DNA of 64,000 nt, from NCBI RefSeq assembly GCF_054482595.1, contig NZ_CM137008.1; one strand, written 5' to 3'. This document shows, one piece after another, positions 19,488 to 19,609 of this stretch. The first letter of the stretch is position 1. Each line of letters opens with the position of its first letter. The notes under the pieces were generated by a model that saw nothing but the letters and a program-made list of their open reading frames with translations, searched no databases and had not been told where the DNA came from. Both the position numbers and the translations under genes were made by a program.

Positions 19488-19532
19488 AGGGCAAAGCGGA
19501 AACGGATAAGACGGGCATAAATGAAGAAGAAA

Positions 19533-19609
19533 TGGCGCGCCCTGCAGGATTCGAACCTGCGGCCCACGACTTAGAAGGTCGTTGCTCTATCCAACTGAGC
19601 TAAGGGCGC
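19533..19609 (-). tRNA. argU: tRNA-Arg (anticodon UCU)
   Basis: Reverse complement reads GCGCCCTTAGCTCAGTTGGATAGAGCAACGACCTTCTAAGTCGTGGGCCGCAGGTTCGAATCCTGCAGGGCGCGCCA: 77 nt, cloverleaf-compatible, TCT anticodon, encoded 3' CCA. Confidence 0.95.

Follow-up and report, generated by a model that had tools for sequence, protein, structure and literature searches.

In Escherichia coli K-12 MG1655 the tRNA gene argU borders on intD, after which come the remainder of the prophage DLP12, appY, ompT and envY, and a 47-bp core at the 3' end of argU forms a direct repeat that bounds DLP12 together with appY and ompT. For the far end of DLP12, the 47-bp argU repeat has already been described (Ramisetty and Sudhakari 2019, PMC6379469), and the source for the argU/DLP12 att sites is Lindsey, Mullin and Walker (1989), as cited in the same paper. 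DLP12-free strains are likewise present in the literature (PMC6379469; PMC5723341), and an empty argU site is an already described state. Among these strains are Shigella and EIEC lineages that are also ompT-negative (Nakata et al. 1993, as reviewed in PMC5723341). According to the description in that review, ompT is missing in Shigella and EIEC since the whole of DLP12 is missing, as it is in the window, i.e., the whole stretch of 64,000 nucleotides analysed here; whether those lineages were never lysogenised or lost the prophage by excision is acknowledged there to be ambiguous (PMC5723341). The strain of the window is, by contrast, apparently an O157:H16-type E. coli and not an invasive pathovar, so that no pathoadaptive reading is implied for it.

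The window and the K-12 argU/DLP12 att sites share the tRNA gene, the 47-bp core and the flanking genes. They differ in that K-12 is occupied by a defective prophage whereas the window is empty, and their flanks are about 1% different. The first-pass annotation of this DNA, which placed DLP12, appY and ompT of K-12 in the interval from argU to envY, was correct for the MG1655 region. The site in the window appears to belong to the same argU/DLP12 type and would represent an unoccupied tRNA-gene attB for a lambdoid phage with a tyrosine integrase.

The envY-argU junction

The gene order in the window is nfrB, nfrA, ybcH and envY on the plus strand, argU on the minus strand, fimZ on the plus strand, and sfmF, sfmH, sfmD, sfmC and sfmA on the minus strand (features and coordinates in Table 1).

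Table 1. Features of the window with their positions (position 1 is the first letter of the window).
Feature	Position	Strand	Remarks
nfrB	12456-14693	+	in-frame stop at 13614-13616; ORFs of 386 aa and 342 aa
nfrA, backbone gene	14680-17652	+	NCBIfam NF007302, 1891 bits; Santai annotation
ybcH (DUF4434), backbone gene upstream of envY	17653-18543	+	NCBIfam NF007404, 521 bits
envY, AraC-family regulator	18726-19487	+	253 aa; stop codon ends at 19487; ORF list
Spacer, envY stop to argU 3' end	19488-19532		exactly 45 bp; envY-side bacterial arm of attB
attB core	19531-19577		47 bp, AATGGCGCGCCCTGCAGGATTCGAACCTGCGGCCCACGACTTAGAAG; 2 bp plus the 3' 45 nt of argU
argU, tRNA-Arg(UCU), anticodon TCT, intact	19533-19609	-	ARAGORN; sole tRNA in the window
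Predicted sigma-70 promoter-like site	19641-19668	-	TTGACT, 16 nt, TATAAT; 11/12 matches; consensus scan
fimZ, response regulator of the sfm fimbrial cluster	19852-20484	+	NCBIfam equivalog NF007403, 446 bits
sfmD, fimbrial usher	22033-24642	-	internal stop; ORFs of 619 aa and 171 aa
Rhs core protein, then small hypothetical ORF	~55152-59827	-	between ybbP and ylbG/mnmH; placed via identity to Santai 884978-889652

The envY reading frame carries AraC-type HTH domains (Pfam HTH_AraC and HTH_18). Its best match in NCBIfam is GadX, far under the cut-off, and since NCBIfam holds no EnvY-specific model, the gene was identified from its synteny and from the name that RefSeq gives to identical DNA. 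The sequence is 100% identical to the annotated envY (WP_001177464.1) of strain Santai and likewise identical in XH990 and EDL933, while orthology with the K-12 gene is indicated by the collinear envY-side flank (part of nfrA, ybcH and envY), which is 99.1% identical over 4,443 bp. The Rfam model RF00005 matches argU at 19536-19609 with 72.1 bits, where the gathering score is 29, and the 3' CCA end of the tRNA gene lies at position 19533 on the minus strand. The distance of about 45 bp between envY and this end, as given in the first-pass annotation, is exactly 45 bp. We looked in this spacer for a terminator-like hairpin serving the convergent envY and argU transcripts and found none. On the 5' side of argU the bacterial arm contains fimZ, and the identical Santai DNA is also annotated as fimZ in RefSeq. 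The predicted promoter-like site lies about 30 nt upstream of argU.

In a three-way alignment the core is identical at 47 of 47 positions between the window, K-12 attL and K-12 attR. To the left of the core the window tracks the envY side of K-12 (attR), to its right the argU side (attL). In BLAST comparisons one K-12 arm ends at 19577 of the window and the other begins at 19531, and their overlap is exactly the core. The window equals K-12 minus the approximately 21.3 kb between the repeats, with one core copy left and no base gained or lost, and this copy is the only one in the window. The alignment also shows that appY and ompT of K-12 are located within the att-bounded element. The DLP12 interior gave no blastn match in the 64-kb window, and a tblastn search of the window with 17 DLP12 proteins (including IntD, AppY and OmpT) returned only the paralogy between AppY and EnvY, which bears out the earlier claim that neither a prophage nor appY or ompT lies between envY and argU.

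Signs of a scar were likewise sought at the junction, and no integrase remnant, second or partial core, IS, or extra or missing bases were seen. The 45-bp spacer is the same, bar single SNPs, in four diverse strains with an empty site (EDL933, E. coli C, O104:H4 2011C-3493 and the window), and it adjoins attR in the occupied genomes of K-12, SI-NP020 and XH990. Because the spacer is common to diverse empty strains and to the attR side of occupied genomes, the empty junction is not the product of a lineage-specific deletion. Polymorphisms that would mark a past crossover were sought in core and spacer; the core is invariant, and the SNPs of the spacer are single and unrelated to occupancy. Judged by its sequence, the core segment of the window is an intact unoccupied attB at the 3' end of argU and not a scar. 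The first-pass annotation had left the choice between an unoccupied att site and a precise deletion that also removed ompT; this alternative is supported by the alignment with the K-12 junctions (one 47-bp core, exact arms, no breakpoint signature), and its plain reading is an ordinary empty attB.

Occupancy of argU in Escherichia

The contiguous envY-argU-fimZ junction was found in 2530 of 5426 complete E. coli genomes with a 701-bp query that spans the junction and for which a contiguous match was required. The K-12 arrangement, with ompT, attR and envY contiguous, is present in 1583 of the 5426. The empty argU attB is the commonest single state among complete E. coli genomes. Native adjacency of envY and argU in most E. 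coli, with no breakpoint, had been named in the first-pass annotation as the mark of a simply ancestral empty site. This largely applies, the adjacency characterising the largest single class of genomes.

In 1120 records the junction query finds no better match than one of 90-95% identity, and the sampled rows among them match the argU region alone, at about 94%. Such an argU-only match would be yielded by the arrangement in ATCC 25922, a genome drawn from the ompT-without-envY rows of the ompT search. Its gene order is folD, argU, an integrase pseudogene, tail-fibre assembly and methyltransferase genes, ompT, a degenerate attR (44 nt at 93% identity) and ybcH, with a 3.4-kb DLP12-like remnant directly against ybcH (L004, 11972-16503). 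In this B2-type locus envY and the sfm/fimZ cluster are missing, folD abuts argU, and argU bears the DLP12-like remnant with ompT and the degenerate attR, whereas in the window both backbone blocks are present and a remnant is absent.

The ompT genes of K-12 and the B2 strain are 97.8% identical (2.2% different), and the flanking core genes of the two are 96.2-98.2% identical (3.8% different in ybcH, 1.8% in nfrA). This suggests that the occupation of argU is old in the species and that the element has long been resident in some lineages. Because the divergence of ompT is about that of the flanking genes and suggests such an old occupation, some of the empty sites must be secondary.

Outgroups were surveyed by a YbcH-anchored scan with one genome per species, which returned few Escherichia species, among them neither E. 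fergusonii nor the E. coli type-strain representative, and in which E. whittamii is cut at a contig end. In E. albertii the order is ybcH, envY, a 725-bp AT-rich insert, argU, fimZ and sfmF, and no integrase and no ompT were found at its argU locus; this gene order without a prophage agrees with the ancestral empty site considered in the first-pass annotation. In two clade-type Escherichia genomes ybcH is followed by a short integrase remnant, argU and folD. Because of the E. albertii order and the integrase remnants of the clade-type genomes, the envY-argU-fimZ backbone appears to be older than E. coli, and argU seems to have been struck repeatedly by integrase-bearing elements, the ancestral state being read from E. 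albertii and these two clade-type genomes only. The insert of E. albertii NBRC 107761 contains an unannotated ORF of 160 aa at the place of the 45-bp spacer of E. coli (L007, 5597-6079), for which a Pfam scan gave no match.

The window's clone, an occupied relative and free phages

The first 25 kb of the window are 100% identical to O157:H16 Santai and about ten other genomes, and over positions 24805-64000 only 3 of 39,196 bases deviate from Santai. The strain is best placed as a member of the O157:H16 Santai-like clone. Several loci of the window besides argU deserve mention. The product of nfrB is a c-di-GMP-activated glycosyltransferase that is required for adsorption of phage N4. The nfrB gene of the window, interrupted by an in-frame stop (Table 1), is a pseudogene by the Santai annotation and intact in the near-clonal XH990. 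The internal stop of sfmD is common to Santai and XH990, and the sfm fimbrial operon is therefore probably non-functional in the clone. The Rhs core protein and the small ORF behind it are a probable toxin tip/immunity pair, in a region that varies among relatives, with an extra RHS insertion in VCSW8 and STEC1575.

XH990 surfaced through the query with the envY-side arm, which it matches at 100% over 3078 bp, but the matched stretch covers no tRNA. Compared with the window, one of its flanks has 2 mismatches in 8,505 bp and the other 2 in 27,947 bp (4 in 36.4 kb), and the two have lineage-specific alleles in common, one of them the internal stop in sfmD. A complete lambda-like prophage of 47,596 bp is present in XH990, bounded by two perfect core copies of 47 bp. 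Its genes comprise int, exo-bet-gam, kil, cIII, N, cI, cro, cII, O, P and the nin region; rusA, Q, an nmpC-like porin gene, S-R-Rz and iss/bor are also present, and to these are added Nu1, large terminase, portal, capsid, the tail genes up to J, lom, stf and tfa. At the right end, pinR, a methyltransferase gene and an alpha/beta hydrolase gene are followed by ompT, directly beside attR and envY. Cargo of this prophage thus includes iss/bor, lom and an nmpC/OmpD-like porin (L027, 38490-38783). Given a complete prophage at an identical sequence, the attB of the window is predicted to support integration. Of 17 genomes that reach 99.8% identity or more over the 3 kb of envY flank, XH990 is the sole one occupied at argU and the other 16 are empty. 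The next-nearest lineages, YZMc3-1, Res13-Sevr-PER07-33, D8 and TB06051, are empty too and slightly further from the window than XH990, where nearness means local identity and not position in a genome-wide tree.

The lack of ompT at argU does not mean that a genome has none, because O157:H7 carries ompT on another prophage. In O157:H7 strain 3384 the argU attB is empty and ompT is located at the end of a different prophage that adjoins minCDE (L024, 3666-9954), and this prophage end carries the same methyltransferase/tfa/alpha-beta-hydrolase/ompT module. Because the same module sits beside minCDE in O157:H7, it apparently moves between lambdoid phages with different integration sites. To see whether the nearest genomes have ompT elsewhere, we used a chimeric query composed of 1601 bp of the junction and, on the opposite strand, 700 bp of K-12 ompT. 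O157:H7 genomes, as the positive control, give two matches, while each of the 18 genomes nearest to the window (at least 99.9% identity) gives one, the junction alone. No ompT was found on the chromosomes of these 18 genomes within the range of megablast. Because its nearest genomes give a single match against two in O157:H7, the clone of the window appears to be chromosomally ompT-negative.

Relatives of the XH990 prophage are also known as free phages. OmpT is encoded in 13 sequenced Escherichia phage records, all of 45-50 kb, which represent ev243, 2G7b, Turner, Kati, PhiR26_1, PhiR29_1, PhiR29_2, PhiR30_1, PhiR49_1 and PhiR68_2, with ev243, 2G7b and PhiR49_1 counted twice (GenBank/RefSeq copies; PhiR49_1_star). 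For several of them the recorded host is E. coli C, ECOR13 or K-12. The integrase of XH990 and DLP12 is at least 99% identical in 14 phage records; in seven of these the alignment continues through the core (PhiR68_2, 2G7b, ev243, Turner, Kati), and the other seven (the remaining PhiR) start at the integrase, with the alignment stopping short of the core. PhiR26_1 ends in the exact 47-bp core. Most of the XH990 prophage matches this phage at 97-99.8% identity, and what survives of DLP12 matches it at about 98%; the cargo of PhiR26_1 includes an annotated PD-lambda-1 defence gene (L029, 9690-11192). Phages ev243, 2G7b, Turner, Kati, PhiR26_1/29/30/49/68 and the XH990 prophage have an integrase of at least 99% identity, the same core and ompT by attP in common; they constitute the mobile partner (attP), whereas the window constitutes the bacterial partner (attB) only. 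DLP12 thus belongs, in decayed form, to a phage family that continues to circulate, with ompT as a cargo gene adjoining attP.

In tyrosine-recombinase systems the integrase recombines attP and attB inside their shared core, and excision by Int and Xis restores attB exactly. By analogy, the argU attB would be used by lambda-like temperate phages with a DLP12-type tyrosine integrase. The final 45 nt of argU would be present as a copy in their attP, so that integration duplicates the 47-bp core and argU may stay functional because the phage supplies the copy of its 3' end. As ompT adjoins attP, it would land beside envY once the phage integrates, and excision would reverse the integration and regenerate the sequence seen in the window. 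This proposed course of integration draws on established tyrosine-recombinase biology and on Lindsey et al. (1989), as cited in PMC6379469.

History and meaning of the empty site

Because excision regenerates attB exactly, a site that was never occupied and one that was cured are not separable from the sequence. We consider it probable that the recent ancestors of the clone were never lysogenised at the empty argU attB and that XH990 recently gained its phage. Since 16 of the 17 closest genomes are empty, a single gain in XH990 is more parsimonious than at least two losses, and the direction of change was most likely a gain in XH990 rather than a loss in the lineage of the window.

A less likely alternative, which nevertheless deserves consideration, is that the lineage once possessed a complete or defective ompT-bearing lambda-like prophage at argU and lost it by precise integrase/excisionase excision, whereby attB would have been restored and ompT removed. 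The near-clonal XH990 holds a suitable substrate, namely a complete prophage with intact int and perfect 47-bp repeats. As XH990 keeps the ancestral intact nfrB, compared with the nonsense allele of the window, it branches outside the subclade of the window and may be basal to it, and for this reason the simple count of empty genomes is weaker than apparent. DLP12-type elements are located at argU in roughly half of E. coli, the divergence of ompT resembles that of the core flanks, and Hha-induced excision of DLP12 in K-12 has been reported (PMC4632033). Against excision, the empty relatives include lineages beyond XH990, which is what raises the number of losses to two or more, and the XH990 prophage looks recently acquired, with a complete structural module and few pseudogenes. 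We accordingly retain recent gain in XH990 as the favoured reading, and regard it as possible, but rather doubtful, that OmpT status within one clone (Santai-like genomes versus XH990) is switched by gain or loss of a complete and probably active lambda-like phage at argU.

It is quite improbable that the empty allele was imported by homologous recombination (via transduction or conjugation) and replaced an occupied locus along with its flanks. Such an import would be in line with the argument that cryptic prophages spread horizontally together with their flanks (PMC6379469), and with the 1.6-kb junction being 99.8% identical to O157:H7 while the flanks are just about 99% identical to K-12, from which it follows that local haplotypes are common to distant backgrounds. 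The near-identity to XH990, however, spans 36 kb on both sides, and the difference between the two genomes is confined to the att-bounded element.

Deletions of the ompT region occur in E. coli B strains, and deletions removing ompT are also known from laboratory strains. We reject as next to impossible that the junction is what an illegitimate or IS-mediated deletion of DLP12, appY and ompT has left behind, given a base-exact junction that has no IS or partial phage sequence and recurs in the 2530 genomes, and given that envY, ybcH, nfrA, argU and fimZ are intact and collinear.

The argU locus is of little importance in itself, its state being common and already known. The strain of the window is predicted to lack chromosomal OmpT and the other genes of K-12 DLP12 (among them nmpC, emrE, rusA, bor, appY and the lysis cassette), and this lack bears on protease phenotype and antimicrobial peptide resistance. 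The strain is further predicted to be a permissive integration host for ompT-carrying lambda-like phages. If OmpT status is indeed switched by phages within the clone, ompT would be a lysogenic-conversion gene on contemporary time scales rather than the chromosomal virulence or housekeeping marker for which it is usually taken, and the lineage of the window, instead of being a naive host, could be a lysogen that was cured recently. The locus cleanly illustrates that DLP12, appY and ompT of K-12 are a single att-bounded element, complete relatives of which are still circulating, one of them in a near-clonal sister genome.
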